From positions 1-55,041 of the forward strand of contig CAYMPL010000003.1 in NCBI GenBank assembly GCA_964392415.1: 55,041 nt of DNA, in the 5' to 3' direction. Origin of the DNA: an uncultured bacterium. GTDB lineage: Bacteria; Bdellovibrionota; JACOXK01; 2-02-FULL-40-11. The position numbers and the translations under genes were made by a program. The notes beneath the pieces were generated by a model. The model ran no database searches, was not told the origin of the DNA, and worked only from the letters and a program-made list of their open reading frames with translations. Of this stretch, positions 26,694 through 45,643 are shown piece by piece (within the stretch, counting starts at the first letter, position 1; the number at the start of each line of letters is the position of its first letter).

Positions 26694-29600
26694 GTTACCT
26701 CCTGTAATGACAGCCATTCATTTGCGAATCTTCGAACCATCGGCAAAATGTCTTTCCACTCCTGAACTTTTGCAGCCAACCGATTTCCTGAACTCATCTG
26801 ATACTGTTTTGGATTCGTTTTGACAAGTTCAATCACCCGGTTTGGATCGACCGGGGTTTGATCTGAAAAGGTCATAAACACTCTCTGAGTTCCGTAATCA
26901 ATCGCTCTGATCCCCAATTTTTTGAGATAAAACTTGATCGCCATCAGTTCAAAGAGATGATAGACGTTATCCGGAATAGGCCCAAAACGATCACGCATCT
27001 CCTCTTCTATCTCCATCAATTCTTCTTCATGTTGAATCGAAGAAAGATGGCGGTAAAACACGAGCTTCTCACTCATATCTGGAATATAATCTTCATCGAT
27101 ATAAGCATCCATCTTCAAATTCATTTCGGGTTCCATGCCTAAATCGACACTCTCTCCTTTCAACTCGCGAACCGTCTGCTCCAGGAGTTCCGTATACATT
27201 TCAAAACCGATCGCGGCGATATGTCCCGACTGATCTTTTCCCAAAATATTCCCGCCGCCGCGAATTTCCAAATCGTGGCTTGCGATCTTAAATCCAGCCC
27301 CAAGCTCCGAGGCGCCCTGAATGGCTTGAAGCCGTTTTTTGGCATCAGCGGTTATCTGATCTTCACCAGGAATAAGAAGATAGGCAAACGCCCGCTCGTG
27401 CGAGCGCCCCACCCGCCCCCGAAGCTGGTAGAGTGTTGCCAAACCAAAGGTATCGGCACGATCGATAATGATCGTATTTGCCGTCGGAATATCGATTCCG
27501 CTCCCCACGATGGTTGTGCAGACCAGAACATTAAATTTTTGGTTTAAAAAATCGTGCATGACTTTTTCGACTGCTGTCTCTCTCATCTGACCGTGCGCGA
27601 AATGGATTTTGGCTTCAGGGACAAGCTTTTGAAGATGGCGCGTCATCCCCGAAATCGTTTCAACCCGATTGTGGAGAAAAAAAACCTGCCCCCCTCTGTG
27701 GATTTCATTTAGGATCGCTTCACGAATGGTGTGATCGTCAAATTTCGAAATATACGTTCGAATCGCACGGCGATCCTGCGGGGGGGTATTGATCACACTT
27801 AAATCACGAACCCCCATGAGCGACATGTGAAGGGTGCGGGGGATCGGCGTTGCCGTCAGCGTTAAAACATCGAGTTCGGTTTTCATCTTCTTGATTCTTT
27901 CTTTATGGACCACTCCAAAGCGCTGTTCTTCATCGATGATGAGAAGGCCAAGATCCTGAAACCCAATATCCCGCGAAAGAAGGCGATGGGTGCCAATCAC
28001 AATATCCGCCCCCCCTTTTTTAATTTTTTCAACCACCCTTTTTTGCTCCGCCGCTTTGACAAAACGAGAGAGCATCACCACCTGAATGCCAAAGGGATCG
28101 AGTCTTTTCTGAAAGAGGCGATAGTGCTGATCGACGAGAAGCGTCGTCGGCGCCAGCAGCGCCACCTGTTTTTTATCAAAAACCACTTTCACCGCCGCGC
28201 GGATCGCAACCTCCGTTTTTCCGTAGCCAACATCGCCGCAGACGAGACGATCCATCGGTTTGGGCTCGCACAAATCGTGGATCACTTCTTCAATAGCCCT
28301 CATCTGATCTTGGGTTTCCTCATATGGAAACGTCGCCTCAAATTCATGAAAATAAGGATCCGGCGGGGAAAATGAATAACCGCTCGCCTGCTGTCTTGCC
28401 GCGTACAAATTCAGGAGCTCATAGGCTATCTCCTGAATCGCTTTTTTGACCCTCGATTTTGTTTTTTGCCAACCCTTTGCGCCCAGTTTATCGAGGGGAA
28501 CCGCCCCCTCTTTGCTCCCCAGATACGGCTGAATGACATTCAACCTGTGAACAGGGACATAAAGACGATCGTTGTCCGCATATTCCATCAATACATAATC
28601 GTTCTCGTGATCCGCGGTTTTAAGTCTCTTAAGCCCCTGATAAAGCCCGATGCCATGATCGGCATGAACCATCGGATCCCCTATTTTCAACTCCGCCAAA
28701 TTCGAGATAAATGGCGCTTTTTTTGAAGGACCGGCCGTCTGGCTTGGTCTTTTCTTTCGCTCGCCAAAAATTTCATCTTCCGTAATAAAGACTGTTTTTT
28801 CATCCGGATCCCGAAAGCCCGAACTCAATTCTCCTGAAACAAAAATCAGATGAAAATGCCGAAAGCCATTATTCTTTCGGATTTCATGAATCGTTTGAAG
28901 CGCGAATGATTTTTCGAGAAACATGCAGCGAATACCATACGGCTCCATCAATTCCCGAAAACGCTCATGCTGTATTTTTGTGTGCGCGGTCAAAATGACG
29001 ACATATCCTTCATCGCGCCAATTTTTGAGATGCTCGGCAAGCGGGTTTAGCATTTCAAGCGATTTGTTTTTTAATTTTCTAAAGTCGAGACGAATATCCT
29101 GATTATCTTCCATGTGAACCACTCTATTTTTCTCTTTTTCGGAAAGCAGCTCGATCGGTGAAATATGGATATATTTTTGAGGACTCAAATAAATCTCCAT
29201 CTCTTTTTTTGTGGAATAAAAATCGGAGACCGGCGCTGAGATTCTTTTATCTTTCATCGCCTCCTGAAAATCACGTTCGCATTCTTCCTCAAAAGTGGCC
29301 ATTGCATCCTCAATCTTTGTCTTATCCGAATAAACCAGATCAAAACACTCCGGGAAATAATCCAAAAGATGCGACAATTTCGAATAGAAAAAAGAAAGAT
29401 AATAGTCTACGCCTGAAAAATAGATGCGATGTTTCACATATTCCAAAATCTGATCACGATCCCCCTTTTTTACCCCCTCCTCATCCGCATGCCGTTTGAT
29501 CGCTTCCAATGCCTGTTCCATATAGGGCTCCCCATAAATAATTTCGCGGGCGGGAATCACCGCAATCTCTGGAATATCTTTTTGTAAAGACCTCTGCGTG

Positions 29601-30193
29601 GCGGGATCAAATGTCCGGATTGTCTCAATCTCATCTCCCACAAATTCAAGGCGATAGGGAACTGGAGAAAGCGGCGTAAAAAGATCGAGAATCCCCCCTT
29701 TCACACTGAACGTCCCTTTATCCTCAACCGTTTCCACCCTCTGATATCCGTTTTCAGAAAGTTCTCTAATCAACTTGTCACGATCGATCTCCCCCCCCTC
29801 TTTCAAAAAAAGGGTCCGATCGATCAGGACTTCTCTGGGAATCACGCGCTGCATCAGCGCATCGACGGTAGAAATAACCAAAAGATCCCTCTCCTGAAGG
29901 AGGTGATACAGAACTTTCAGCCGGGACATGATGATCTCTGGATGGGGAGAATAAGTATCGAAAGGATGAGACTCCCATCCCGCATAATACAGGATACGAT
30001 CTTTTAAATCCGGCAAAAAAAAGGAAAGGTCAGAAACAAGATTTTCAGCCTCCCTATGCGACTCCGCAATGAAAAGGAGGGTACTCCGCTTGAATGCCCA
30101 ATAGGACGATAAAAAAAAGGGAAGACCTCCCCCTTTGAGACCGGTGACATTCACCCCCCCCTCCACCGCTTCAAAGCGAGAGAAATCAAACAT
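26690..30193 (-). CDS. mfd: Transcription-repair coupling factor
   Basis: UvrB-like N-terminus; CarD/TRCF domain; [17 protein letters not shown]; DEEQRFGV; QLRGRVGRS. Confidence 0.97.
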
Positions 30194-30271: not shown

Positions 30272-30444
30272 CATCGAGCTACGGTAAGGCCTCAGAACCT
30301 GTGAAAAAATTGAGAAAGTATAATTCAACCGCTCGAATTTATCGCCACCGATCCCCATTCAATGTGGTCAGGTTCTCGAAACTGCAGTCAGCATCTACTG
30401 ATGCAGGGTTTCTATCTGAACCAATACGCAAGGAGAGAGCTATC

Positions 30445-30966
30445 ATGAAGTATTTTCTATCTATCATTTTTACAGTCTTACTCTTTGCTACGAGCAATAT
30501 CGTATTTGGCTATGCGATTGATTGCAAAGGGGGGAGGGTCACGGATCTCACTGAAAATTCAGATGGTACCGCAACACTGGAAAGCGATGATAGTCAGGTT
30601 CGTTTGTTCCTCACAGAGTATGCTTTGGATGGCAGGCCATCAGCGGATGATTTCTTTCTATATAGAAAAGACGGCGAACGCGAACCGACCACTGACTCTG
30701 CCTTGCAGCAGGTAACATACCTCAGAAAAGATGATGCCAAAGCGTACGATTATGATGCATACGATCAGCTTTGGAAATTTGAGACAAAAAAAGTTTATGT
30801 TTATGAAGTTTTGCCTCAGGATCAAACTCATGTCATAAAAGTGGAATGGGTGTTGTTAAAAGGACTTTCGGGTTCAGCGGATAACCCCGTAACGATTTCC
30901 CGGGTTTATTTTAAAGGCTCAGAGACGCCTGTTCGTTATGTAAGTTGGTGCCGGAAAGTCAGATAA
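30445..30966 (+). CDS. Hypothetical exported protein
   Basis: AGGAG SD, signal peptide MKYFLSIIFTVLLFA; two distant Cys. Confidence 0.65.
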   Translation: MKYFLSIIFTVLLFATSNIVFGYAIDCKGGRVTDLTENSDGTATLESDDSQVRLFLTEYALDGRPSADDFFLYRKDGEREPTTDSALQQVTYLRKDDAKAYDYDAYDQLWKFETKKVYVYEVLPQDQTHVIKVEWVLLKGLSGSADNPVTISRVYFKGSETPVRYVSWCRKVR

Positions 30967-31012
30967 TCAATTTATCTTGACGGATAATCATCGACTGCAA
31001 TATATCTCTGTC

Positions 31013-32041
31013 ATGTTAAAACAAATTCTCTTTTTAATACTTCTTTCATTTTTTACATTGCCTCTTTTTGCGCAAGCGCCGGCGGGGGAAGTCTGTGAAG
31101 AAACAGATCCCAAAAAAATCGTCGCGGAGGTCTATGGACAAAAGCTTTCGGAAGGAGAGCTCAATCGATCTCTCAGTATGGATCTTTTCCAGATGCAGAA
31201 AAATATTTATAACCTAAAAAAACGTAAAATCGACGAATGGGTTGAAAAAATCCTTCTTGAAAAAGAAGCCATGAAAAAGAAGATAACGCTTGAGCAGTTG
31301 ATGGAAAAAGAAGTCCGGAATAAAATAAGATCGATAAGCCAAAAAGATGTGGATAAATTTTATGAACAAAACAAAGAACGCCTTCCAGGGACAAAAGAGC
31401 AGCTCGCGGATAGAATTAAGAGCTTTCTTGAGAATGAGGGGAGACAAACCACCTATCGCAACTATGTGGATCGCCTAAAAAAGAGGGCACGGGTCGTCTA
31501 TTCTCTTTCCAAACCAGAACATCCCCGCGTTGAACTTTCATTAACACCGGGACCTACCCGGGGAAAAGAAAACGCAAAAGTAAAAATTGTCGAGTTCTCT
31601 GATTTTGAATGTCCGGGGTGTGCAGGGCTGGTGGCCAAACTCGATCGTGTCTTAAAAAAATACGGCAGCAAGATCAGCCTTACCTTTAAAGCCTACCCGC
31701 TCAGCTTTCACAAAAAAGCGGTTTTAGCCCATCAGGCATCCCTTTGTGCGGATGACCAGGGGAAATTCTGGCCTTATCACGACATTCTTTTTAAAAGCCA
31801 ACAGGCTTTGGAAAGAAAAGATCTGGAAGGATACGCTGAAAAACTCAAAATCGATATGACAAAGTTCAGGCAATGCCTAGACAGCGGCGAAAAATTCGCA
31901 AAGGTTCAAAAAGACATTTCAGAAGGCGATCAGGCCGGCGTCAACGCCACTCCCACCTTCTTCATCAATGGCAAAATCGTTGTCGGCGATATTCCTCAGG
32001 AACAGATTGAAGAGCTGATTAACGAGGAATTGAAGCGGTAA
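31013..32041 (+). CDS. DsbA-family thioredoxin-fold protein with SurA-like N-terminal domain
   Basis: Signal peptide; IVEFSDFECPGC; GVNATPTFFING cis-Pro loop. Confidence 0.85.
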   Translation: MLKQILFLILLSFFTLPLFAQAPAGEVCEETDPKKIVAEVYGQKLSEGELNRSLSMDLFQMQKNIYNLKKRKIDEWVEKILLEKEAMKKKITLEQLMEKEVRNKIRSISQKDVDKFYEQNKERLPGTKEQLADRIKSFLENEGRQTTYRNYVDRLKKRARVVYSLSKPEHPRVELSLTPGPTRGKENAKVKIVEFSDFECPGCAGLVAKLDRVLKKYGSKISLTFKAYPLSFHKKAVLAHQASLCADDQGKFWPYHDILFKSQQALERKDLEGYAEKLKIDMTKFRQCLDSGEKFAKVQKDISEGDQAGVNATPTFFINGKIVVGDIPQEQIEELINEELKR

Positions 32042-32052
32042 AATGTCAGCTT

Positions 32053-32445
32053 ATGTACACCCAATTTATAACCATTTTTATCTTCCTTTTAATCGGGGCG
32101 GCGATTGTGCCGGCTATTCTCCTGGTGGGAAAAATTCTTAGGCCGCATCATCCAGATGAAAAAAAATTAACGACTTATGAATGCGGAGAAGAGGCGATCG
32201 GCTCTTCATGGGTACAATTTAATTTGCGATTTTATGTGATTGCGATCCTTTTTCTAATCTTTGATGTTGAGGCGGTCATTATGTTTCCTGTCGCGGCTGT
32301 TTTCAGGCAATGGATTTTAAGTTCTCCCGCCAATGCCTGGCTTGTTTTTACCGAGGTCTCCATTTTTCTTCTGATCCTCATCGTGGGCTTTGCCTATGCC
32401 TGGCATAAAGGGGACTTTGAGTGGATTCGGGAAAGGAAAAGCTAA
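32053..32445 (+). CDS. nuoA: Complex I subunit A (set 1)
   Basis: TYECGEE, FYVIAILFLIFDVE, KGDFEW. Confidence 0.95.
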   Translation: MYTQFITIFIFLLIGAAIVPAILLVGKILRPHHPDEKKLTTYECGEEAIGSSWVQFNLRFYVIAILFLIFDVEAVIMFPVAAVFRQWILSSPANAWLVFTEVSIFLLILIVGFAYAWHKGDFEWIRERKS

Positions 32446-32448
32446 GCA

Positions 32449-33561
32449 GTGTCATTTCCTGAATTTTTAAGAGAGCTTCTCGCTTTTTCCCCTCTCCTGG
32501 CCTCCATTCCCCTTTGGGTCTACAGTCTTATTGCAATCCTGGGTCTTCTTTTCCTTTTCGTCTTCCCCTTCGCTGGAATTGCTGTCTACGTTGAAAGAAA
32601 GATCGCTGGAGACATTCAGTCGCGTATCGGCCCAAACGTCGTCGGCCCCTATGGAATCCTCCAATGGATCGCAGATGCTTTAAAACTCCTGGTAAAAGAG
32701 GATATTATCCCCAAAAATGCCGACCGAAAGCTCTTTATTTTATCGCCGATGATTATCTTTATCAGCGGCGCGGCAGCTTTCGCTGTCATCCCCTTTGCTG
32801 AAAATCTGATTATTGCGGATCTCAATATCGGTATTTTCTATCTGATCGCGATTTCCTCGATGGTCACGCTTGGCATCATTATCGGCGGATGGGCATCCAA
32901 TAACAAGTGGTCGCTTTTAGGGGGGCTTCGCGCGGCGGCACAAATTGTCTCCTATGAAATTCCGGTTGCGCTCTGTATCTTAACCGCGGTACTTGTCACC
33001 GGTACCCTCGATATGACTCAAATTGTAAAAAACCAGTCTCCCTACGCGTGGAATATTTTTCATAACCCTTTTATGACGATTGCCGGTTTCGTTTACTTTA
33101 TTTCAGCGCTGGCTGAAGTAAACCGCACCCCCTTTGACATCCCGGAAGCGGAATCTGAGCTTGTTTCCGGCTACAACACGGAATATAGCGGCATGCGTTT
33201 CGCGATCTTTTTTCTCGTCGAATACGCCAACTGTTTTGTGATTTGCGCGGTGGCAACAACGCTTTTCTTCGGCGGGTGGCATCTGCCGCTGATCGACACC
33301 TCAGGGCTTTCCCCCGCATTTCGAATCCCGCTTCAAGTTGTTGTCTTTATGTCCAAAGCCTTTCTTCTCCTTCTCGTCATAATGTGGATCCGCTGGACAC
33401 TGCCACGATACAGAGTCGATCAGCTGATGAAACTCTGCTGGGAAATTCTCGTCCCCTTTGCTTTTGCGGCGCTTTTCGGAACAGCGCTTTGGATGGTTCT
33501 TTTTCAGGGGAAAGGAATTCCAGAGATGATCTGGGAGCTTCTAAAAAAGGTGGTGGAATGA
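32449..33561 (+). CDS. nuoH: Complex I subunit H (set 1)
   Basis: ERKIAGDIQSRIGPN, ADALKLLVKE, RTPFDIPEAESELVSGYNTEYSG, RYRVDQLM. Confidence 0.95.
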   Translation: MSFPEFLRELLAFSPLLASIPLWVYSLIAILGLLFLFVFPFAGIAVYVERKIAGDIQSRIGPNVVGPYGILQWIADALKLLVKEDIIPKNADRKLFILSPMIIFISGAAAFAVIPFAENLIIADLNIGIFYLIAISSMVTLGIIIGGWASNNKWSLLGGLRAAAQIVSYEIPVALCILTAVLVTGTLDMTQIVKNQSPYAWNIFHNPFMTIAGFVYFISALAEVNRTPFDIPEAESELVSGYNTEYSGMRFAIFFLVEYANCFVICAVATTLFFGGWHLPLIDTSGLSPAFRIPLQVVVFMSKAFLLLLVIMWIRWTLPRYRVDQLMKLCWEILVPFAFAALFGTALWMVLFQGKGIPEMIWELLKKVVE

Positions 33562-34055
33562 CCTCCTACGATTTTATTTTCTACGCGTTTTCAGGGGTCA
33601 TTATCGGATCATCTGTTGTTTGCGTCTTTCATCCGAATATTCTTTATGCGGGACTTTCCCTTTTTGGAGCTTTTTTTGGAGTGGCTGGGATTTATTTGCT
33701 TCTGGGAGCCGATTTTTTGGCGGCAACACAGGTTTTGATCTATGTCGGGGGGATTCTCACATTGCTTCTTTTTGCAGTCATGCTTTCTAAAAATATTTAT
33801 GGGGTAAAATTTGAAGAAGAAAAAAAGAGAAAAATCGTCCCCACCCTTTTTTGTCTGATTCTTTTGGGTTTTCTCGTGAAGCTCATATTCTCAGCCCACT
33901 GGAATATCGTCACCCCAACTGATCCGCCAACTGCTACAACCCATCGTCTCGGAACACTCCTCTTAACCGACTATCTTTTGCCATTTGAATTGGCCTCTGT
34001 TCTTCTTTTGGCATCCCTCATAGGGGCGATCGTTTTGGCGAGGAGTAAAAGTTAG
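33558..34055 (+). CDS. nuoJ: Complex I subunit J (set 1)
   Basis: QVLIYVGGILTLLLFAVML, YLLPFELASVLLL; ATGA overlap with nuoH. Confidence 0.92.
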   Translation: MTSYDFIFYAFSGVIIGSSVVCVFHPNILYAGLSLFGAFFGVAGIYLLLGADFLAATQVLIYVGGILTLLLFAVMLSKNIYGVKFEEEKKRKIVPTLFCLILLGFLVKLIFSAHWNIVTPTDPPTATTHRLGTLLLTDYLLPFELASVLLLASLIGAIVLARSKS

Positions 34056-34058
34056 CAG

Positions 34059-34370
34059 ATGTTACACGTTGAATTAAAGCATTACCTCGTTCTCTCATCC
34101 ATTCTTTTTGTGCTTGGAATTCTCTCGATTATTTCAAGAAAAAACTCGATTGGGGTTTTGATGGGGATAGAACTTGTGCTGATCTCCGCAAGTATTAATT
34201 TTGTCGCATTCTCAAAATATATCGCGATGGATCTCTCAGGGCAGGTTTTTGCCCTCTTTCTTTTCATTATTTCGGTTTCAGAAGCGATCGTCGCTCTCGC
34301 CATTGTGCTCCGGATTTATCAAAACAGGGCATCTGTAGATATGGATGATGTCGGAGATCTTAAATGTTAA
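34059..34370 (+). CDS. nuoK: Complex I subunit K (set 1)
   Basis: MGIELVL and VSEAIVALA (both conserved Glu). Confidence 0.93.
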   Translation: MLHVELKHYLVLSSILFVLGILSIISRKNSIGVLMGIELVLISASINFVAFSKYIAMDLSGQVFALFLFIISVSEAIVALAIVLRIYQNRASVDMDDVGDLKC

Positions 34371-36358
34371 CAGCCATGACTGCGATTCTTATTTCACCCC
34401 TGATTTCATTTGCAGTTCAGATTTTCTTCGGAAAACGCCTCCCAAGATCTGGAGATTGGGTTTCGATCTTTGCCATTTTTCTCTCCCTTGTCCTTTCGAT
34501 CCTTCATTTTATGGATGTTTTCAGCGCTTTTGATCCTTCCTTTAAACTGACCTTCTCCTGGCTCTGGCTCGACATTCCCGAATTTAGACTTGAGTTTGGC
34601 TACCACATCGACAACGTCAGTTCGCTGATGCTCGTTGTGGTCACAGGAGTCAGTTTCCTGATTCATCTCTATTCGGTCGGCTATATGCGCGGGGATTCAA
34701 GATACAGCCGCTATTTTGCCTATCTCTCTTTCTTCTCCTTTTCGATGATCGGGCTTGTTCTCGTTGATAATCTGTTTTTTCTCTACATTTTTTGGGAACT
34801 GGTGGGTCTCTCTTCCTACCTTCTCATTGCCTTCTGGTTTGAAAAACCAGAAGCGGCAGCGGCAGGCAAGAAGGCCTTTATTGTGACGCGTATCGGCGAC
34901 GTGGGGATGTTTGTAGGAATTCTTCTCATCTTCTTCCAAACAAACGGTCTTCTCAAATACGACGATGTTTTCGGCGCTGTTTCAAAGGGGCTTTTCAACT
35001 CCGATATATTTGGAATCTCAGTTTTAACGATTGCGGGGGTCTGTCTCTTTTTGGGAGCGGTCGGAAAATCTGCCCAGTTTCCACTCCATATTTGGCTTCC
35101 AGACGCCATGGAGGGCCCGACACCGATTTCAGCGCTGATTCATGCGGCAACAATGGTCGCTGCGGGGGTCTATCTCGTCATACGGATGTTCCCTTTTTTA
35201 TCCGATGACGCGCTGCTCATCATCGCGTATACAGGGGGATTCACCGCTTTTTTCGCCGCAACGATGGCTGTCACACACACTGATATCAAAAAAATTCTCG
35301 CCTATTCAACGATCAGCCAGCTGGGATTTATGATGCTTGGGGTGGGGGTCGGAAATTATACGGGGGGATTTTTTCATCTCGTCACACACGCCGCTTTCAA
35401 AGCTTCGCTCTTTCTCTGCGCGGGGAGTGTGATTCATGCGACACATTCGCAAGACATTCGTGAGATGGGGGGATTACGCCAAAAAATGCCGATCACATTC
35501 TGGGCAAGTCTTATAGCTACGCTTGCTATATCAGGAGTACCTTTTTTCTCAGGATTCGTCAGTAAGGATTTAATTTTGGGAAGCGTCTATTCATTTGCAA
35601 ATGAAAATCCAGTTCATATTCTGCTGCCGATATTTGGTTTTGGTGGCGCGCTGCTTACCGCTTTTTATATGTTCCGCTGGTTGTTCTTGATCTTTTTTGG
35701 CACAGCCAAAAAAAATCAGCTGCATGAATCGACTTGGACAATGACCATACCGTTGATCTGCCTGAGCATCCTCTCCTTCGCTATTATTTTCACAGGTTCC
35801 CCACTCTGTTTGGGTGAACTCAATCTCTTTGGTTCTTCCAGCCAGTGGTTTACACATCTCATTGTTTCTCCAAAAACAACGGAATCCCATGAGAATGCGC
35901 ATCTCATTCCTTTAATCCTCTCCCTTTCCATCGTTACTGCTGGAATTCTTCTTTCGTACCTCACCTATTCCAGAAAGCTTATCGATCCCCAAAAGATCTC
36001 GGACAAATTCAAGGGCATCTATAAGACACTCACAAATCTTTATTGGATCGATGAACTCACCGAATGGCTGATCGTGAACAACCAGATCCGTCTCAATAAT
36101 GTCCTTGCCAACTTTGACAACCGTGTGATTGATGAAACGCTTGTTGATGGCTGGGCGCCCCTTACGGCAAAGACCTCCCTTATTTCAGGTGATTTTGACA
36201 ATCGGGCCATCGATCAGACACTGGTTGATGGAACAGGGAGGATCATTGGTCAGACGGGGACAGAAATCCGAAAAATTCAGACTGGAAAAGTTCAACAATA
36301 TCTTTTATTAGGACTTGGGGCTGCCTGTATAACGCTCTTGATTCTTTTAATGGTTTAA
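34364..36358 (+). CDS. nuoL: Complex I subunit L (set 1), elongated transverse helix
   Basis: FWELVGLSSY, GKSAQFPLHIWLPDAMEGPTP, HLVTHAAFKA, FVSKD, IQTGKVQQY. Confidence 0.95.
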   Translation: MLTAMTAILISPLISFAVQIFFGKRLPRSGDWVSIFAIFLSLVLSILHFMDVFSAFDPSFKLTFSWLWLDIPEFRLEFGYHIDNVSSLMLVVVTGVSFLIHLYSVGYMRGDSRYSRYFAYLSFFSFSMIGLVLVDNLFFLYIFWELVGLSSYLLIAFWFEKPEAAAAGKKAFIVTRIGDVGMFVGILLIFFQTNGLLKYDDVFGAVSKGLFNSDIFGISVLTIAGVCLFLGAVGKSAQFPLHIWLPDAMEGPTPISALIHAATMVAAGVYLVIRMFPFLSDDALLIIAYTGGFTAFFAATMAVTHTDIKKILAYSTISQLGFMMLGVGVGNYTGGFFHLVTHAAFKASLFLCAGSVIHATHSQDIREMGGLRQKMPITFWASLIATLAISGVPFFSGFVSKDLILGSVYSFANENPVHILLPIFGFGGALLTAFYMFRWLFLIFFGTAKKNQLHESTWTMTIPLICLSILSFAIIFTGSPLCLGELNLFGSSSQWFTHLIVSPKTTESHENAHLIPLILSLSIVTAGILLSYLTYSRKLIDPQKISDKFKGIYKTLTNLYWIDELTEWLIVNNQIRLNNVLANFDNRVIDETLVDGWAPLTAKTSLISGDFDNRAIDQTLVDGTGRIIGQTGTEIRKIQTGKVQQYLLLGLGAACITLLILLMV

Positions 36359-36367: not shown

Positions 36368-37918
36368 GTGATTTTACCAGAATTTATTTCAGATCATATT
36401 TTAAGCTGGATGGTCCTTTCACCCCTTATTGGAATAGCGCTGATTCTTCTTATTCCACGGCTCCAGAACAACGCCATTCGCTGGATTTCAGTTTTGACGA
36501 CCGCGATTCCCCTCTTATTGTCGGTTGCCCTTATTTTTCTTTTCGATCGGGATGAGGCCGGGATTCAATTTGTAGAAAGGGCCCCCTGGATTACGAGCTT
36601 TAATATCTATTACTATCTGGGGACCGACGGGCTCTCGGTCACGATGCTTCTTCTGACCGCCCTGCTCTCATTCCTCTGTGTGTTCGCCTCATGGGGGATC
36701 GACAGAGGGGTCAAAGGCTATTTCTCGATGTTTCTTCTTTTGGAAACAGGGATGATGGGGGTCTTTGCCGCCCTCGACTTCTTTCTCTTCTATCTCTTCT
36801 GGGAAGTGATGCTCCTTCCGATGTATTTCTTAATCGGCGTCTGGGGGGGACCCAAAAAAGAGTTCGCCGCGATCAAGTTCTTTCTCTATACCCTCTTTGG
36901 CTCTGTCCTCATGCTCGTTGTTATGCTTGCATTTTATTTTTACAGTGAGCCGCATACTTTCGACCTCGTTGAACTCTCAACCGGGATTCTTCAATTTAAA
37001 AACGTGGAAATTTTTGGAATTTCATTGACGCCGGAAACATTCCGAAGAATCCTCTATATCTTTCTATTCATTGGTTTTGCGATTAAAGTTCCCATCTTCC
37101 CGTTTCATACATGGCTCCCTCTCGCGCACGTCGAAGCTCCCACCCCAATTTCTGTTCTCCTTGCCGGAATACTTTTAAAAATGGGGGCATACGGACTCTT
37201 AAGGATCAGCTTTCCGATTTTACCGGAGGAAACAATTTGGTTTGCTTACCCACTTGCGTTTATGGGACTGATCAATGTGATCTATGGAGCTTTTTGCGCG
37301 ATGGCTCAGATTACGCTCCCCGCCTCCAAAGGGGGAAACGACTGGAAAAAACTGATCGCCTATTCATCGATTAATCACATGGGGTATGTTCTCTTGGGAA
37401 TGTCTGTTTTTACAACGGAGGGGATGAACGGAGCTGTTTTCCAGATGTTTAATCATGGCACAACGACGGCAATGCTCTTTCTTTTGGTCGGTGTTATCTA
37501 CGACCGCGTCCATCACAGAAAGATCGATGGCTTCGGGGGGCTAGGTGCTCAGCTTCCTGTCTACACAGGCGTTGTCGCGTTGGCTTTCTTTGCGTCACTT
37601 GGACTGCCGGGGCTTTCGAGCTTTATCTCTGAAGTGCTTGTATTTTTGGGGGCATTTAAGGTTTACCCGACAATCACTATTCTAGCCACTCTCGGCATTA
37701 TCCTCAATGCGGCCTTTTTCCTCTGGGTATTCCAGAAAATCTTTTTTGGCCCGCTCAATAGCAGCTATAAAGATCTTAAAGATTTAAATTGGCGTGAGAA
37801 GGTCTCGCTGATTCCGCTTTCTATTATTGTGGTTGCGCTTGGGGTCTATCCCATGCCAGTCCTCAACCTCATGAAGGCAAGTCTTGATAAACTGATTCTT
37901 TTAATTCAGGCCACTTAA
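36368..37918 (+). CDS. nuoM: Complex I subunit M (set 1)
   Basis: FWEVMLLPMY, AIKVPIFPFHTWLP.AHVEAP, LLKMGAYG, FISEVL. Confidence 0.95.
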   Translation: MILPEFISDHILSWMVLSPLIGIALILLIPRLQNNAIRWISVLTTAIPLLLSVALIFLFDRDEAGIQFVERAPWITSFNIYYYLGTDGLSVTMLLLTALLSFLCVFASWGIDRGVKGYFSMFLLLETGMMGVFAALDFFLFYLFWEVMLLPMYFLIGVWGGPKKEFAAIKFFLYTLFGSVLMLVVMLAFYFYSEPHTFDLVELSTGILQFKNVEIFGISLTPETFRRILYIFLFIGFAIKVPIFPFHTWLPLAHVEAPTPISVLLAGILLKMGAYGLLRISFPILPEETIWFAYPLAFMGLINVIYGAFCAMAQITLPASKGGNDWKKLIAYSSINHMGYVLLGMSVFTTEGMNGAVFQMFNHGTTTAMLFLLVGVIYDRVHHRKIDGFGGLGAQLPVYTGVVALAFFASLGLPGLSSFISEVLVFLGAFKVYPTITILATLGIILNAAFFLWVFQKIFFGPLNSSYKDLKDLNWREKVSLIPLSIIVVALGVYPMPVLNLMKASLDKLILLIQAT

Positions 37919-37925: not shown

Positions 37926-39398
37926 ATGGAAAATCTTTCTACAGCTCTTCTTCTTTATTCGCCCGAAATGATCATCGCCATCACACTCTGTTTCGCGCTC
38001 ATTATCCAGATGATTTCAAAGAATAAGACGCTGACTTTTCTAACCGTCCTTTCGGGACTTCTTGTTTCAGCTTATGCCAGCCTTCGGCTGAGCGAAGTTG
38101 AGCCGCAAACCTATTTTTCAAATCTTCTCAGTCACGATCCCTTTTCTCTCTTTTTTAGAGCCTTCTTTATATTAGCGACTTTTTTCACTTTTCTTTTCAG
38201 CTTCACATCTCATGAGATCTCGGAAGACCGCCATTCTGAATTTTATTTGATGATACTTTCTGTTCTCATCGGAATGACAACGCTCGTTTCTTCCATAAAT
38301 ATCCTCTCGCTCTATCTTTCATTGGAACTGGTGAGTATTGTCTCTTATGCTCTTGCCGGTTTTAGAAAGGAGCATCCCGCTTCAAACGAAGCGGCCATTA
38401 AATATCTCCTTTACGGGGCCATGGCATCGGGAACGATGCTTTGGGGGCTATCGCTTCTCTATGGACTGACAGGAACACTCAATCTCTATCTTCTTAAAGC
38501 AGCCCTTTCTTCTTCCTATATTGATCCCCTCTCACTCCACGCTATTTTCATCATGCTCCTTTTTGGATTTGGATTTAAGATGGCATTTGTTCCATTTCAT
38601 ATGTGGGCGCCGGATGTCTACCACGGAGCTCCCACCCCGACTGCCGCTTTTTTTACGGTTGCCCCAAAAGCCGCAGGGTTTGCGATCTTTATTCGCTTTT
38701 TCTACACCGTTTTTGCAAATCCGGTCGGTAATGGAACTGAATGGGTCTGGTACGCAAATCTTAACTGGCCGCTTTTTATTGCGATTCTTTCAGCCCTAAC
38801 GATGACCGTTGGAAATTTATCCGCGCTTTTTCAAAAGAATGCCAAACGGATGCTCGCTTATTCAAGCATTGCCCACGCTGGATATATGATGCTGGGACTC
38901 GTCGCCCTGACACAATCGGGAATTTCTGCGGTTCTCTTTTATATCGTTGTTTACTTTTTTATGAATTTTGGGGCCTTCTTTATTGTGGGGCTCGTGGGAA
39001 ATATCTTTAAAAATGAAGAAATCTCAAATTTTAAGGGACTGGGATGGAAATCGCCGCTGGTTGGAATTTCTATGGCGATCTTCCTTTTATCTCTCACAGG
39101 ACTCCCCCCTCTCGGCGGTTTTATCGGAAAGGTTTATCTTTTTTTAGCGCTCGTTCAGAAAGAGATCTACTGGCTGCTGATTGTGGCAATTATCAATACC
39201 GTTATTTCACTTTATTACTACGCATATATCATCCGTGAAATGTTTCTTGAAAAACCGGAAAATGAAACCCGGATTGTTCTTTCCCCGCTCCATGCAGTCA
39301 CACTCCTTCTTCTTGTCGTTCCAACCGTTGTTCTTGGCATCTATTGGGAACCGTTAATGACCTACGTTTCAAAATCGCTGCAATTTGTACAACCTTAA
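37926..39398 (+). CDS. nuoN: Complex I subunit N (set 1)
   Basis: LELVSIVSY, GFKMAFVPFHMWAPDVY, PKAAG, KRMLAYSSIAH, FIGK. Confidence 0.95.
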   Translation: MENLSTALLLYSPEMIIAITLCFALIIQMISKNKTLTFLTVLSGLLVSAYASLRLSEVEPQTYFSNLLSHDPFSLFFRAFFILATFFTFLFSFTSHEISEDRHSEFYLMILSVLIGMTTLVSSINILSLYLSLELVSIVSYALAGFRKEHPASNEAAIKYLLYGAMASGTMLWGLSLLYGLTGTLNLYLLKAALSSSYIDPLSLHAIFIMLLFGFGFKMAFVPFHMWAPDVYHGAPTPTAAFFTVAPKAAGFAIFIRFFYTVFANPVGNGTEWVWYANLNWPLFIAILSALTMTVGNLSALFQKNAKRMLAYSSIAHAGYMMLGLVALTQSGISAVLFYIVVYFFMNFGAFFIVGLVGNIFKNEEISNFKGLGWKSPLVGISMAIFLLSLTGLPPLGGFIGKVYLFLALVQKEIYWLLIVAIINTVISLYYYAYIIREMFLEKPENETRIVLSPLHAVTLLLLVVPTVVLGIYWEPLMTYVSKSLQFVQP

Positions 39399-39444: not shown

Positions 39445-41067
39445 ATGAATTGGGCCATGAACTGGAATCGAAGAAATTTTTTAAAATTCATGGGAAGAAG
39501 TTCTGTAGCTCTTTGGACGCTCTCTTCTCTAAACTCACTGGCTTCATGCGCATCCATCCCTCCTCAAAAAAAGAAACTGCTCCCTTTCGAACCGATTCCA
39601 CCTTCCTCAGAAGATCAACTGATTTTGGCAGATGGGTTTCAACATAAAATTGTCCTTTCGTGGGGTGAAGTGATCAATCGACAGGGGGAGCGATTCGGAT
39701 TTAACAATGACTTTACAGCCTTTTTTCCATTCGACCCCTTTAAACCGGATGACGGCCTCTTTTGGGTTAACCACGAATACCCGCATCCTATTTTCATCAA
39801 CGGCTATATTTCGGGAGAAGTCCGGACAAAATCGCAAATTGAGGCGGAACAGGCATCTCTGGGGGGGACGATTATACGGATTCGCCAAAATATGGGAGGC
39901 GGGTGGGAGCCGGTTTTTGACGACTTTCGCAATCGAAGAATTTCTGCCATCACGCCGATCCCCATCGTATCGACGCGGCCGATAGCCGGAAAAAAAGTTG
40001 CCATGGGAACACTCGCAAATTGCGCGGGGGGAGTCACCCCCTGGCGAACGGTTCTCTCCTGTGAAGAAACGTATGAAGACTTTTATGGTGAAAGGGATTT
40101 TTTGAATAAAAGAGACCGGATCGTCCCTGAGTCTGCCTACGGCTGGCATCGTTTTTTCTTTTATCCCCCTGAACATTACGGCTGGGTGGTGGAAGTTGAT
40201 CCCTTTACGGCAAAATCAAAAAAACTGACTGCCCTGGGACGGTTTGGTCATGAGGGGGCGAATATCGCGTTGACGAGTGATGGACGCCCGGTCGTTTACA
40301 TGGGGGATGATGGAATCGATCGCTGTCTCTATAAGTTTGTCGGGAAGTATACGGGAACGCTCGAGACTGGAACGCTCTATGTTGCCAATATCGAAAAGGG
40401 GATATGGATCCCGCTCGATATTAAAAAAACAGCCTCTCTTCAAAAATATTTTAAAGATCAGACAGAAGTCCTGACGTATGCGCGCGAGGCGTCAAAAATT
40501 GTCGGCGGAACCCCGCTGGCACGTCCTGAAGATGTCGAATATGATCCCGTCTCCAAAGAAATTTTTGTGGCTCTCACAAAAGACAAAAACAAAGGAAATT
40601 ATTTTGGTTCTCTTTTGAGGCTTATTGAAAAAGACCATGATCCGGGAGCTATCGAATTCGAGGCCGCAGTCTTTTTGACAGGGGGGGAAGAGAGCGGTTT
40701 TGCATGCCCCGATAATATGGTCTTTGATCGGAAGGGGAATCTCTGGCTTACCGGCGATATGTCAGAGAAAGATATGGGAAACGCCCCTTATCAAAAATTC
40801 AAAAACAACGGCCTCTTTTTTATTCCAATGAACGGGCCCCATGCGGGGAGTGTTTTCCAGGTCGCCTCCGCCCCCGTTGATGCCGAGTTCACCGGCACTT
40901 CATTTTCACCCGATGGTAAAACCCTTTTTATTTCGGTTCAACATCCAGGTGAACGAACGCAAAGTCTCGATCAACTCACCAGCCATTGGCCTGATGGCGG
41001 AAATGCCATTCCACGCCCGAGCGTTGTTGCGATTTCAGGCCCGGCGCTGGAAAAAATTGTGTCATAA
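39445..41067 (+). CDS. phoX: PhoX-family alkaline phosphatase, Tat-exported
   Basis: NRRNFLK twin-Arg; VNHE, NCAGGVTPWRTVLSCEE, GRFGHE, RPED, PDN, AEFTG, VQHPGE. Confidence 0.88.
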   Translation: MNWAMNWNRRNFLKFMGRSSVALWTLSSLNSLASCASIPPQKKKLLPFEPIPPSSEDQLILADGFQHKIVLSWGEVINRQGERFGFNNDFTAFFPFDPFKPDDGLFWVNHEYPHPIFINGYISGEVRTKSQIEAEQASLGGTIIRIRQNMGGGWEPVFDDFRNRRISAITPIPIVSTRPIAGKKVAMGTLANCAGGVTPWRTVLSCEETYEDFYGERDFLNKRDRIVPESAYGWHRFFFYPPEHYGWVVEVDPFTAKSKKLTALGRFGHEGANIALTSDGRPVVYMGDDGIDRCLYKFVGKYTGTLETGTLYVANIEKGIWIPLDIKKTASLQKYFKDQTEVLTYAREASKIVGGTPLARPEDVEYDPVSKEIFVALTKDKNKGNYFGSLLRLIEKDHDPGAIEFEAAVFLTGGEESGFACPDNMVFDRKGNLWLTGDMSEKDMGNAPYQKFKNNGLFFIPMNGPHAGSVFQVASAPVDAEFTGTSFSPDGKTLFISVQHPGERTQSLDQLTSHWPDGGNAIPRPSVVAISGPALEKIVS

Positions 41068-41074
41068 GGATTTC

Positions 41075-41971
41075 ATGAAAAAAGAATCTTTGGCTCAGGG
41101 GGCGATGATTGTCATATCCGCCGTTTGGGGTTCAACTTTTATTATGGTGAAAGAAGCCTTGAACGGCGTGCATCCTTTGACGCTCACCAGTTTTCGTTTT
41201 TTGATCGCCTCTTTTCTTTTGCTTCCGTGGGTTTTTAAGAAAAGAAGCTCTTTTAGAAACGCCCTTTCAGCGGGCTGTTATTTGGGAATTTTTCTTTGGA
41301 TTCTTTATCTCACTCAGACATGCGGGCTTTATTTTACTTCGGCCGCAAATTCCGGTTTTCTCACCGGGCTCTTTATTGTATTTATCCCGATATTTCTCTT
41401 TTTTGTTTCCGGAGTACGCATCGGGAAATTTCAAATTTTCACCATTGGTTTGGCCACCTTCGGCGTGTGGCTCTTAACAGGCGGGGTGGAGAAGTTCAAT
41501 ATCGGCGACGGACTCACCATTATCTGCGCATCTGCTTACGCGGCGCACGTTCTTCTGATCGACCGATATGCCAAGAGTTCCCTGGAACCTGTGCATTTGG
41601 CCTTCATTCAGTTTTTTCTGGTAGGTTTCTTAAGTCTTCTTGCCTCCCTCCCTATCGGAGAAAGAGCGTTCCTCATCGATCCCTCCGTTTGGGACAGCAT
41701 CATTTTTCTCACCCTTTTTCCAACGCTTCTTGCATTTTTTATCCAGCTTTGGGCTCAAAAATTTGTGTCCCCCGTTAAAGCCGGGCTCATCTATACTCTT
41801 GAACCCGCCTTTGCGGCGCTCTTTGCCTGGACTGTAGGAGGAGAAGAGATCACCTGGAGAGGGGTTTTGGGAGGAGGGCTTGCTTTCCTGGCAATTTTTC
41901 TTTCTGAATTTTATCATCAGCGTCATTCCGAGGCCGCAGGCCGAGGAATCTCGTCGGAAGCCTCTTGGTGA
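41075..41971 (+). CDS. EamA/DMT family transporter
   Basis: WGSTF, SAANSGFLTGL, EPAFAALFAW; about 10 TM segments. Confidence 0.88.
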   Translation: MKKESLAQGAMIVISAVWGSTFIMVKEALNGVHPLTLTSFRFLIASFLLLPWVFKKRSSFRNALSAGCYLGIFLWILYLTQTCGLYFTSAANSGFLTGLFIVFIPIFLFFVSGVRIGKFQIFTIGLATFGVWLLTGGVEKFNIGDGLTIICASAYAAHVLLIDRYAKSSLEPVHLAFIQFFLVGFLSLLASLPIGERAFLIDPSVWDSIIFLTLFPTLLAFFIQLWAQKFVSPVKAGLIYTLEPAFAALFAWTVGGEEITWRGVLGGGLAFLAIFLSEFYHQRHSEAAGRGISSEASW

Positions 41972-41981
41972 AAGCGGCTGA

Positions 41982-42030
41982 TTTTTTTACCTTGAGTAAT
42001 CCCATACAATTACATATAAAAAAAACGATG
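41982..42030 (+). promoter_or_regulatory. Promoter/operator block, copy 1 (before nuoA set 2)
   Basis: TTGAGT-N17-TATAAA-N7-ATG with GTAAT-N8-ATTAC; near-identical to 43735-43783. Confidence 0.7.
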
Positions 42031-42396
42031 CTTGTGGAGAATCACATTGCCGTCATGCTCATGTTTCTTTTTGCTGTTCTTTTGGGGGCGGCAATGATCG
42101 GGCTTTCGGCGGTGGTGGGGCGTGTCAAACGCGACCCCGAAAAGCTCTCTGTTTACGAGTGCGGCGCCCCCCCTTCAGGAACCTCAAGAGAGCGATTTTC
42201 GGTCAAATTTTATCTGGTGGCTATCTTCTTTCTCATCTTTGATATTGAAATCGTTTTTCTTTATCCCTGGGCGCTGATTTTTAAACGCCAGCTTTCACAG
42301 GGCCCTTTGATTTTGGTTGAAATGCTGATTTTTCTTGCCCTTCTCATCGTCGGTTATCTTTATATATGGAAAAAACGGGGGCTTGAATGGGATTAG
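42028..42396 (+). CDS. nuoA: Complex I subunit A (set 2)
   Basis: VYECG, RFSVKFYLVAIFFLIFDIE, RGLEWD. Confidence 0.95.
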   Translation: MLVENHIAVMLMFLFAVLLGAAMIGLSAVVGRVKRDPEKLSVYECGAPPSGTSRERFSVKFYLVAIFFLIFDIEIVFLYPWALIFKRQLSQGPLILVEMLIFLALLIVGYLYIWKKRGLEWD

Positions 42397-43556
42397 GTAA
42401 TTAATCCAAGTTCTTTTAAGCCTTCCCGCCAAGGAATAGCGAGAATATTCCCAATCTTTTTTTTATGTGGATCCCTTGAAAAAATGAAGGCTTCGGCGTT
42501 TTTGAAATCTTTTAAAAATCTTTCCAGGGTTCGACTATCTCGTTCATCAATATGATCATTCGATTTAATTTCAATCAGCGCAGTCGGTTCTCCAGGTCTC
42601 TCAATAATTAAATTGATTTCTGCATTGTCTTTTGTTCTAAGATAGGAAAGGCGGTAATCTTTTTTAAAATATTGATTTAAACGATCTATTTCTATAATCA
42701 AAAAATGTTCAAATGCCTTACCAAATGCATAAGTATTTGGAAGCAATTTTACCGGAAGCTGCCGTGCCAGAGCTCTTTGAATGCCTGTATCAAAGAAATA
42801 AAATTTCGGATTCGTTCGCTGCTGTTTTCGAATCGATCGATGATGCGGTTCAAGCATAAAACCGATCAATGTATCTTCCAGAATCTGAAAATAAGATTGA
42901 ACCGTTTTTGTGTCACTGCCAACATCCCTTGCTATATTTGTAAAATTAATAATCTCACCATTGGCTTGTGCGGCAATTTCAAGAAACCGTCTAAACGGAT
43001 CCAATTTTCGGATGATGTGCTCAGCCCAGATCTCCTCCTTCAAATAGGTCTGCGCGTAGGATGTCAAATAGTCATGTTTTTCTTCTTCTGTTTTCAAGTG
43101 AAAGATTTTCGGGAGCGTCCCCCAGTGTAGTGTTTCTCCAAGATCGAACGAATCGCCGAGTTCGACGTGGGTCAGTGAAAAGAGATGATTGACAAATGCT
43201 CGGCCCGCCAGAAGATTTGCCCCTCCCTTTTTCAATTTTCGCGCGCTTGATCCGGTCATTGAAAATTTAATTGGCGTTGATTCAATGAGCGAATGGACAA
43301 CATCGAGCAGCTTGGGCTGTTTCTGAATTTCATCGATAATAATCCAGTCGATCGAACCGATCTGAGCTTTTGCCTGTTCTGCTAAGACAGCAGGATTTCT
43401 TAAAAAAAGGTCTTCTGTTTTGGGATCAAGGAGGTCGAACCAGAGGATGCGTCCATCTTTAAAAAACATCTGTAAAAACGTAGACTTACCTGTTCCACGC
43501 GCTCCAAATATAAAAAAACTATTTGATTTCAGAGGCTTAATAATCCTATGGAACAT
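42393..43556 (-). CDS. AAA_14 ATPase with DUF4143-type C-terminal domain
   Basis: GARGTGKST, IIIDEIQK, TGSSA, PKFYFFDTG, IEIKS. Confidence 0.85.
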   Translation of the reverse strand: MFHRIIKPLKSNSFFIFGARGTGKSTFLQMFFKDGRILWFDLLDPKTEDLFLRNPAVLAEQAKAQIGSIDWIIIDEIQKQPKLLDVVHSLIESTPIKFSMTGSSARKLKKGGANLLAGRAFVNHLFSLTHVELGDSFDLGETLHWGTLPKIFHLKTEEEKHDYLTSYAQTYLKEEIWAEHIIRKLDPFRRFLEIAAQANGEIINFTNIARDVGSDTKTVQSYFQILEDTLIGFMLEPHHRSIRKQQRTNPKFYFFDTGIQRALARQLPVKLLPNTYAFGKAFEHFLIIEIDRLNQYFKKDYRLSYLRTKDNAEINLIIERPGEPTALIEIKSNDHIDERDSRTLERFLKDFKNAEAFIFSRDPHKKKIGNILAIPWREGLKELGLIT

Positions 43557-43734: not shown

Positions 43735-43783
43735 TTTTTTGCCTTGAGTAATCTCCTATAATTACATATAAAAAAGGGCGATG
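43735..43783 (+). promoter_or_regulatory. Promoter/operator block, copy 2 (before nuoH set 2)
   Basis: TTGAGT-N17-TATAAA-N8-ATG with GTAAT-N8-ATTAC. Confidence 0.7.
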
Positions 43784-44833
43784 TCACCTCTGGATTTTAC
43801 GATCCTTTTCATAAAGATTGTTGTTGTCCTTGGGGTTTTGCTCAATATGGTCCCCCTTCTGGTCTGGGTTGAAAGGCGGGGAGCGGCATTCATTCAGGAT
43901 CGCCCCGGCCCTAATCGGGTTGGCCCTTTGGGGCTTTTTCAGCCGCTTGCAGATGCGCTGAAGTTTATTTTTAAAGAAGATCCGATCCCCTTTCATGTCG
44001 ATCCCGTCCTTTTTATCCTTGCCCCGCTGTTTGCGCTGATCCCGGCTGTTGTCACATTTGCCGCCATCCCTTTTGGGGATACGATTGAACTTTTTGGAAG
44101 AACCATCACGCTTCAGGTCGCCGATATGAATATCGGCATTCTCTATATTCTTGCGTTCGGTTCCCTCGGTGTTTATGGAATTCTTATCGCCGGATGGGCA
44201 TCAAACAACAAATACTCAACCCTCGGCGCGCTCCGTTCATCGGCTCAAATGATCAGTTACGAAATCGCGATGGGGGCCGCGCTCGTCGGCCCTCTGATGA
44301 TCTATGAAACATTCTCTTTGAAAGAAATGGTCTTTCGACAAGAAGCAATCTGGGGGATTTTTCTTCAACCCCTCGCCTTTGTCATTGTTTTGATAGCCGC
44401 TTTTGCTGAATGCAATCGATTGCCGTTCGACCTTCCGGAAGGGGAGGCGGAAATTGTTGCTGGTTATCACACGGAATACGGAAGCATGAAATTTGCGATC
44501 TTTTTTATGGCTGAATATCTGCATGTCGTTACGATTTGTTCGTTAATCGCAACCCTCTTTCTTGGCGGGTGGCATTTGATTCCTGGGATGGTGACCGTTG
44601 CGGAATGGGTTGGGATTCCGACATTTCCAACTTCGGTTGGGCTCTCGCTTCTTCAGGTTGCTTCCTTCTGCATTAAAACAGCTTTTATGATCTGGATTTT
44701 TATCTGGGTCCGATGGACATTTCCAAGATTTCGTTATGACCAGCTCATGTCCTTTGGATGGAAAATCATGGTCCCGCTGGGACTCGTCAATATTCTTTTA
44801 ACAACAGTTGCGCTCTATTTTAAATGGATTTAA
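43781..44833 (+). CDS. nuoH: Complex I subunit H (set 2)
   Basis: ERRGAAFIQDRPGPNRVG, ADALK, RLPFDLPEGEAEIVAGYHTEY, RFRYDQLM. Confidence 0.95.
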   Translation: MSPLDFTILFIKIVVVLGVLLNMVPLLVWVERRGAAFIQDRPGPNRVGPLGLFQPLADALKFIFKEDPIPFHVDPVLFILAPLFALIPAVVTFAAIPFGDTIELFGRTITLQVADMNIGILYILAFGSLGVYGILIAGWASNNKYSTLGALRSSAQMISYEIAMGAALVGPLMIYETFSLKEMVFRQEAIWGIFLQPLAFVIVLIAAFAECNRLPFDLPEGEAEIVAGYHTEYGSMKFAIFFMAEYLHVVTICSLIATLFLGGWHLIPGMVTVAEWVGIPTFPTSVGLSLLQVASFCIKTAFMIWIFIWVRWTFPRFRYDQLMSFGWKIMVPLGLVNILLTTVALYFKWI

Positions 44834-44837
44834 GTTC

Positions 44838-45347: not shown

Positions 45348-45643
45348 GCTATTCGTACTATTTAATTTTAAGCTCCATTTTATTTACGATCGGCGTCTCC
45401 GGTGTTTTGCTGAGACGCAATCTCATTGTGGTTTTTATGTCTATTGAACTGATGCTAAACAGCGTCAATCTTCAACTCGCCGCCATTTCCAAATATCTTC
45501 ACTTTCTGGACGGACAAATTTTTGTCTTTTTCATTATTACGGTTGCCGCGGCGGAAGCAGCCGTGGGGCTTGCGATTGTCATTGCTTTGTACCGCCATAA
45601 AGAAACAACCAACATTGACGAGATCAATCTTTTAAAAGGGTAA
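45344..45643 (+). CDS. nuoK: Complex I subunit K (set 2)
   Basis: [18 protein letters not shown]. Confidence 0.95.

Follow-up and report, generated by a model that had tools for sequence, protein, structure and literature searches.

The window analysed here, a 55-kb stretch of DNA from an uncultured bacterium, carries two gene sets that encode complex I membrane arms, both on the + strand, and the question raised by this locus is how many antiporter-like subunits stand in the arm encoded by the first of them. How many such modules a complex I contains determines its H+/e- ratio, and hence how much energy it yields or what it costs to run electrons in reverse. In genomes, a fourth module is by accepted practice diagnosed from two signs, a second nuoM gene and a longer lateral helix (HL) of the NuoL subunit. 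NuoL1, the NuoL of set 1, has a long HL containing a duplicated unit, and its gene is followed by the sole nuoM of the set. It is found that this combination is the normal one in a large group of NuoL proteins, and we tentatively propose an arm with four antiporter-like positions, L-M-M-N, where the extra position is taken by a second copy of NuoM1, a proposal that we rate somewhat short of an even chance.

The duplicated unit in the lateral helix of NuoL1

The gene nuoL1 (34364-36358, + strand; Pfam Proton_antipo_N and Proton_antipo_M) encodes a protein of 664 residues of the long-HL type. The translation of 36053-36292 contains ANFDNRVIDETLVDGWAPLTAKTSLISGDFDNRAIDQTLVDGTGR, where one 13-residue core occurs twice, as FDNRVIDETLVDG (F584-G596, 36113-36151, + strand, with D585 and D590 invariant) and as FDNRAIDQTLVDG (F611-G623, 36194-36232, + strand, with D612 and D617 invariant). 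The two cores start 81 nt or 27 codons apart and are identical at 11 of their 13 residues, so that the repeat noticed in the first-pass annotation at 36113 and 36194 is confirmed by translation, while the best 13-mer self-match in 60 shuffles of NuoL1 is at most 8/13. The repeated motif can be written as F-D-x4-D-x2-3-V-(D/N)-G, lying on an HL unit of 26-27 residues. From the DE-L anchor (Y/F-x-x-DE-L) to Q-T/N-G there are 79 positions in NuoL1 and 52 in NuoL2, the NuoL of set 2, which are the same spans as the 80 and 53 residues that were read before by inclusive counting.

At the DNA level 29 of the 39 bases of the cores are identical, different synonymous codons are used at 6 of the 11 identical residues, and over the whole 81-nt units merely 41/81 columns agree. 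Since synonymous codons differ between the cores and the duplication is present in all the 80 homologues that were aligned, the duplication is old, its copies being kept alike by selection on the protein. An assembly artefact, which had been named as one way for the observation to fail, or a recent repeat, is ruled out by these synonymous-site differences.

In the alignment of 80 NuoL1 homologues, two D-x4-D units spaced by 26-28 residues are present in every sequence, and the invariant residues comprise D585, D590, D612 and D617 of the two units together with the anchors D563, Q639, G641, Q644 and Y646. Both copies are under strong purifying selection. Among the best 120 database homologues of NuoL1, the full-length ones (649-731 residues) show the HL motif twice, and those that are named come from 'Deltaproteobacteria', Marinimicrobia, Calditrichaeota or Glassbacteria metagenome-assembled genomes (MAGs). 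It is also observed that the motif varies by one residue in length (IDGxVNG versus IDxxLVDG), with 34 of the 80 proteins being short/short, 38 long/long and 8 mixed, and that the lineage-specific residues after FD (NR/NR, L[KR]/L[KR], WD/YD) tend to match between the copies.

Models of NuoL1 and NuoL2 were made in the same way by AlphaFold2 (AF2), with homologue alignments. In the NuoL1 model, with a predicted local distance difference test score (pLDDT) of 84.8, the DSSP assignment gives the usual layout of transmembrane helix (TM) 15, HL and TM16: a helix at residues 514-536, HL at 560-636 (36041-36271, + strand) and the TM16 anchor helix at 642-663 (36287-36352, + strand), the last being preceded by IQTGxxQxY. 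The HL itself is predicted as two helices, 560-607 and 612-636, with a four-residue break at 608-611 between the repeat units, while in the model of NuoL2 there is one HL helix at 557-606, with TM16 at 610-630. Thus, 77 HL residues are predicted for NuoL1 versus 50 for NuoL2, and at 1.5 Å per helical residue the HL of NuoL1 would be about 40 Å longer.

Apart from its HL, NuoL1 has the features of a true NuoL. The pump residues E145, K235, H260, K346 and K401/D402 are invariant in the 80 homologues and make up the L-type set (TM5 Glu, TM7 Lys, TM8 His and TM12 Lys-Asp), the gene lies in the order K-L-M-N within the nuo cluster, and the best Foldseek matches of the model are NdhF, Nqo12 and ND5 chains. 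The canonical chains superpose at about 4 Å root-mean-square deviation without the C-terminus of NuoL1, versus 10-14 Å with it. When the C-terminus was compared with the PDB, the only match was a single-unit one, to M. smegmatis NuoL, with the single copy of that protein aligning with repeat core 2. A profile of the short-HL C-terminus aligns end to end and with no insertion with all PDB NuoL, ND5 and NdhF chains, among them T. elongatus NdhF1, Paracoccus Nqo12, chloroplast NdhF, M. smegmatis NuoL, T. thermophilus Nqo12, plant Nad5 and E. coli NuoL. The canonical NuoL/Nqo12/ND5/NdhF proteins have in common with NuoL1 the fold, the pump residues, the TM15-HL-TM16 layout and the QTGxxQxY anchor, but all the solved chains have one motif unit where NuoL1 has two. 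NuoL2 is of the canonical short-HL type.

Long lateral helices and the number of nuoM genes

We scanned species-representative genomes and collected 80 NuoL loci with 10-kb flanks (designated here by L numbers), over which the HL span is bimodal, being either 51-53 or 76-80 residues. In a neighbour-joining tree built on the NuoL core with the HL excluded, NuoL1 falls within a group of 36 loci, all of them with a long HL, and in none of these 36 stretches is a second nuoM present. In about 30 of the 36 the single nuoM lies contiguous between nuoL and nuoN, and most of the group operons that are complete on their contigs read ABCDHIJKLMN. The group members include Ignavibacteria, Melioribacter, Kapabacteria, Gracilimonas, a Chitinophagaceae MAG, Marinimicrobia, Poribacteria, Planctomycetota, Bacteriovoracia and 'Deltaproteobacteria' MAGs, with full ABCDHIJKLMN operons in Ignavibacteria, Melioribacter, Kapabacteria, Balneolales, Poribacteria and Planctomycetota, and further operons in Marinimicrobia. 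A single nuoM beside a long-HL NuoL is therefore the normal gene content of the group. NuoL1, which has both the duplicated D-x4-D unit and a canonical single-nuoM cluster, is by its sequence an ordinary member of this large and old group.

The close relatives of set 1 have likewise one nuoM per set (L001 and L002 at 68% NuoL identity, L085 at 63%, L086 at 86% and L087 at 49%), which answers the check for a second nuoM in relatives that had been proposed for this locus. By contrast, the expectation that the operon is unusual or has lost a nuoM is not borne out: since a long HL with a single nuoM is the rule in the 36-locus group, a local gene loss is unsupported, and with the trait being group-wide we discard it. 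An unrecognised extra membrane gene in the operons is rejected too, as the inserted open reading frames (ORFs) inspected, in L003, L004 and L007, code for soluble or mobile-element proteins, each confined to one locus, and no additional ORF turns up repeatedly from one long-HL operon to the next. These insertions are an ankyrin-repeat gene between nuoK and nuoL (L003, 9215-9922), a DDE transposase between nuoM and nuoN (L004, 13627-14973) and, also between nuoM and nuoN, a soluble 686-residue protein with a DGQQR (DUF262-like) motif (L007, 6894-8954). In the closed Kapabacteria genome of L016, nuoL is split into two ORFs.

Two nuoM genes occur in four of the surveyed loci, L056 (Anaerolineae), L060 and L068 (Verrucomicrobiota) and L080 (Thermoflexus). 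In each of them the HL measures 76-80 residues and the motif-bearing unit is duplicated. The NuoL of L056 clusters with the short-HL NuoL of L065, with NuoL2 and with the set-2 NuoL of L001 (bootstrap 99/100), and because it groups with short-HL proteins its HL extension is independent of that in the large group. The HL unit has thus been duplicated independently at least two times. The two NuoM proteins of L056 are 79% identical to each other, while those of L060, L068 and L080 are merely 31-35% identical.

An HL lengthened by about 26-27 residues is the published mark of 2M complex I (PMC9040806, PMC6606698), with the first giving the insertion as 26 residues (PMC9040806). The earlier statement that the lengthened HL marks 2M complexes is supported by these sources as well as by our four two-nuoM operons. 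In the 2M complexes of Nitrospira, Chloroflexi and others (Chadwick et al. 2018) the HL is lengthened at the same place as in NuoL1, and the Chloroflexi 2M clusters are also described as without nuoBCDI, as are the membrane-arm clusters of the window (PMC7117926). NuoL1 shows the extended HL with two motif units 27 residues apart, but set 1 differs in that its cluster holds no second nuoM, nor do the clusters of L001, L002, L085, L086 and L087. By its gene sequences, set 1 is then not a member of the 2M class, which is defined by the second gene, although its likeness to that class is real.

A parallel is described for 'Ca. Manganitrophaceae', where Complex_I_1 and Complex_I_2 have canonical content and order with a single nuoM and yet an HL insertion in NuoL (PMC9040806). 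Yu et al. 2022 call this mismatch curious and leave an extra pump subunit open (PMC9040806). Complex_I_1 and Complex_I_2, which we compare by that description only, resemble NuoL1 in combining the HL insertion with a single-nuoM cluster. They come from a different phylum, and the window instead pairs a long-HL set in tandem with a short-HL set. The single-nuoM puzzle is thus already known from the Manganitrophaceae; the survey adds that it is widespread and can be addressed in cultivable organisms. It shows that the trait belongs to a far wider group, of FCB, Planctomycetota, Marinimicrobia and 'Deltaproteobacteria' MAGs.

The trees of the other subunits agree with that of NuoL. NuoM1 and NuoN1 are each placed by their own tree in a group matching that of NuoL1, with the L1, M1 and N1 trees being congruent, and set 1 is on this ground a coherent co-evolving module. 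NuoM2 groups with its own L2 and N2. The placement of NuoM1 and NuoM2 in a tree, which had been suggested as a check, thus puts the former with the long-HL group and the latter with set 2. L001, L086 and L087 share with the window the order of a long-HL set followed by a short-HL set, and L088 and L008 probably do so too. In L085 the 7 kb downstream of set 1 contain no second set. The second set of L087 reads A-C-E-F-H-J-K-L-M.

Candidate architectures of the arm

The HL joins the TM7 helices of successive subunits (PMC7419157). Its length tracks the number of antiporter-like subunits, which is two in Mrp, three in complex I and four in the 2M complexes. MrpA is an L-like subunit with an amphipathic HL that leads into TM16 and supports the antiporter-like subunit next to it. 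Mrp, with its two antiporter-like subunits, has a NuoJ-like domain after TM16 and is without a redox module, and by HMMER the HL region of MrpA gives no alignable similarity to that of NuoL.

Based on these relations, the four-position arm that we tentatively favour would work as follows. The HL of NuoL1 would act as a ruler in an L-M-M-N arm, each of its motif units lying on one NuoM, while TM16 would keep its usual dock on NuoN beside NuoJ/K. The simplest occupant of the extra position would be another cognate NuoM1, with both copies coming from the one gene. Per cycle, this arm would pump one proton more than the arm of the short-HL set 2. We favour four positions because more antiporter-like subunits go with a longer HL and because every visible two-nuoM operon has extended its HL by duplicating the identical unit. 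Moreover, the increment of the HL is one unit, approximately the width of one antiporter-like subunit, both HL units keep their invariant Asp pairs, the indel state of the motif is mostly common to both copies of one protein, the two units of one protein resemble each other about as closely as orthologous units of different proteins do, and the QTGxxQxY lead-in of TM16 is identical in the long and short HL forms, all of which we count for four positions. Since TM16 of Mrp covalently continues into a NuoJ-like domain, the dock of TM16 next to the last antiporter-like subunit appears to be ancient. In addition, of 37 conserved columns that are specific to M, only 3 are M-like in the long-HL group's NuoN, giving no sign that an M-type surface has evolved on it, though this is a weak test where the HL-contact residues are not singled out.

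There are a number of points that weigh against the four-position arm with two copies of NuoM1. We know of no complex I relative where a single gene serves two positions, nuoM is not duplicated at any of the 36 group loci, and a second nuo set with its own nuoM is present in every long-HL genome checked by locus or literature, so that a second M may come from elsewhere. Only four columns, all with conservative substitutions, set the long-HL group's NuoM apart from other NuoM proteins, so that no adaptation to self-packing is visible. The signal of concerted evolution between the two HL units is weak, the similarity of units within a protein being 0.53 versus 0.47/0.48 for orthologous units between proteins and 0.44 for cross comparisons, a small excess that is confounded by phylogeny. 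The second HL unit is modelled by AF2 at low confidence (pLDDT of about 50-60), with the break at 608-611 counted to it. The search with the short-HL profile found no solved structure with a long HL among the PDB homologues; with all of these being of the short type, the long form is left without a structural template. Finally, the bootstrap of the 36-locus group is 48/100, which is moderate.

The main rival explanation, which we regard as doubtful but worth setting beside the four-position arm, is that the arm has three modules, L1-M1-N1, with a longer brace. Here, the second unit would lie on NuoN and TM16 would dock on NuoK/J/A/H, one module further in, clamping the whole arm including the E-channel, with the stoichiometry unchanged. 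The K/J/A module is about one antiporter-like subunit wide, so that this geometry is possible and the extra ~40 Å is compatible with it. The explanation would also be consistent with the canonical gene content of the 36 group loci, with the lack of visible adaptation in the long-group NuoM, and with the position of R380 of NuoM1 being K in 57% of the long-group NuoN while it is variable in the short-group NuoN. The canonical single-M clusters of the Manganitrophaceae carry the insertion too (PMC9040806). By contrast, it would be expected that TM16 docking at a new site had changed, whereas TM16 and QTGxxQxY are unchanged; the Mrp TM16, joined to the NuoJ-like domain directly past the last antiporter-like subunit, implies that the dock is ancient; the identical unit was independently duplicated where a second nuoM gene is present; and the few M-like columns in the long-group NuoN do not favour a NuoN that has taken over a unit. 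An unlikely proposal is that the arm has four modules with the second NuoM coming from another locus, either NuoM2 of set 2, as raised in the first-pass annotation, or another nuoM elsewhere in the genome, and possibly conditionally. The order of the long-HL and then the short-HL set, which is kept in the window, L001 (68%), L086 (86%) and L087 (49%), would fit a functional link or such a supply in trans, without proving it. According to the literature, a further nuo set or an ndhM located apart is present in I. album, in M. roseus and in Ca. Tepidiaquacella Ch128a (L024), which would allow it as well, and the two-nuoM operons show that M pairs of 31-35% identity can be used. What makes the proposal unlikely is that NuoM2 clusters with L2 and N2 of its own set, the short HL of that lineage already accounting for one M, that the L1, M1 and N1 trees are congruent, that L085 (63% identity) is without a second set within 7 kb downstream, and that no other set accompanies the operons of FCB and Planctomycetota at their loci. 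Green sulfur bacteria are moreover reported with one 11-gene set related to that of I. album, a likeness that is drawn by gene set and not by HL type.

That the duplication is a neutral relic or an artefact, or is looped out without a structural role, we consider very improbable. Looping-out had been named as an outcome that would undo the significance of the repeat, and the AF2 model bears on it in two ways: the second unit is predicted as helical and not as a loop, which is contrary to looping-out, but the break at 608-611 and the low pLDDT there speak for it. The duplication is found in all 80 aligned homologues and in the 36 loci with four invariant Asp, the synonymous differences exclude a recent or artefactual repeat, and the independent duplication of the identical unit at least two times is difficult to reconcile with neutrality.

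Extending the four-position arm with two NuoM1 copies from set 1 to the whole group, it is conceivable, albeit doubtful, that the long-HL single-nuoM complexes are cryptic four-pump enzymes in which one nuoM supplies two adjacent subunits with the duplicated unit as the ruler that sets their number at two, and that in this lineage arms could be swapped on a Q-module encoded elsewhere. If the four-position arm is true, many complexes would hide a fourth pump made from one gene, the bioenergetic accounting would shift for several phyla, and for the first time in this enzyme family two positions would be filled from a single gene. If the group-wide proposal is true, complex I relatives with 5 H+/2e- would be widespread (in Ignavibacteria, Marinimicrobia, Planctomycetota and others) instead of rare, and side-by-side arms with four versus three modules, encoded without nuoBCDI of their own, could be swapped to change the stoichiometry. 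Alternatively, the HL length alone would be an unreliable marker of the 2M type, which matters for the annotation of MAGs. In either case, the 36 long-HL loci with one nuoM mean that the HL signature fails to predict a second nuoM gene in the operon. In our survey a longer HL from duplication of the identical unit is far commoner than a second nuoM gene, and a whole NuoL group, with the cultivable Melioribacter and Ignavibacterium among its members, has it as a rule.

Gene sets and neighbouring genes of the window

All the genes of the two sets are on the + strand. Set 1 consists of nuoA1 (32053-32445; Pfam Oxidored_q4, E=6.7e-33), nuoH1 (32449-33561; Pfam NADHdh, E=2.7e-118), nuoJ1 (33558-34055; Pfam Oxidored_q3), nuoK1 (34059-34370; Pfam Oxidored_q2), nuoL1, nuoM1 (36368-37918; 516 residues, Pfam Proton_antipo_M) and nuoN1 (37926-39398; Pfam Proton_antipo_M), with NuoN1 clustering with the N subunits of the long-HL group. 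The likely start of nuoJ1 is the ATG at 33558, overlapping the nuoH1 stop, because of a GGTGG-like upstream sequence and a 165-residue product that matches the relatives. NuoM1 matches Paracoccus Nqo13 over its full length (residues 11-502, E=7.6e-109), keeps the FWE, AIKVP, LLKMG and SFISE motifs of that protein in the pairwise alignment, and has the features of NuoM/ND4/Nqo13, with a 14-TM core, TM5 Glu, TM7 Lys, TM8 Lys and TM12 Glu; in the M/N alignment its E422 is the M-type TM12 Glu.

Set 2 consists of nuoA2 (41965-42396; Pfam Oxidored_q4 from residue 43), nuoH2 (43781-44833; Pfam NADHdh), nuoJ2 (44808-45347; Pfam Oxidored_q3), nuoK2 (45344-45643; a 99-residue in-frame ORF whose position matches nuoK of L086), nuoL2 (45646-47547; 633 residues, short HL, with the single FDLKIIDGFVNG motif at 47383-47418), nuoM2 (47544-49067; 44% identity to NuoM1) and nuoN2 (49074-50522). 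The true start of nuoA2 is probably downstream of the listed TTG, the L086 orthologue having 124 residues. By tblastn with L1, M1, N1 and M2, the 55 kb hold exactly six antiporter-like genes and no third nuoM or nuoM fragment, and the single nuoM that had been counted in the NuoL1 operon therefore stands. The scan of the window's larger ORFs turned up none of nuoB, C, D and I, and nuoI is absent between nuoH1 and nuoJ1. The two arms may share a Q-module encoded elsewhere.

Between the two sets (39445-41971) there are phoX, for an alkaline phosphatase, and a gene for an EamA-family transporter. This spacer is common to L086, while L001 has only a small Trm112p-like gene there. Set 2 is split between nuoA2 and nuoH2 by an AAA_14/DUF4143 ATPase gene (42393-43556, - strand), which is a lineage-specific insertion because nuoA2 and nuoH2 are contiguous in L086 and L001. 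In L086 a HepT/Polbeta pair, which is toxin-antitoxin-like, lies upstream of nuoA2. Directly upstream of set 1 (26690-30193, 30301-32041) lie mfd, an ORF of 221 residues without a Pfam match and a SurA_N/DsbA-like thioredoxin gene, with mfd and the DsbA-like gene keeping the same position in L001, L085 and L086.

Beyond set 2, selB, for the selenocysteine elongation factor (50557-52056, - strand), adjoins an AbiEii-type nucleotidyltransferase toxin gene (52687-53517, - strand), which is flanked by two ORFs (52111-52683 and 53620-54906, - strand) without a Pfam match. Finally, we note that at 16130-17193 an HTH_3 gene is followed by a Fic/DOC-domain gene, resembling a toxin-antitoxin or regulatory pair.

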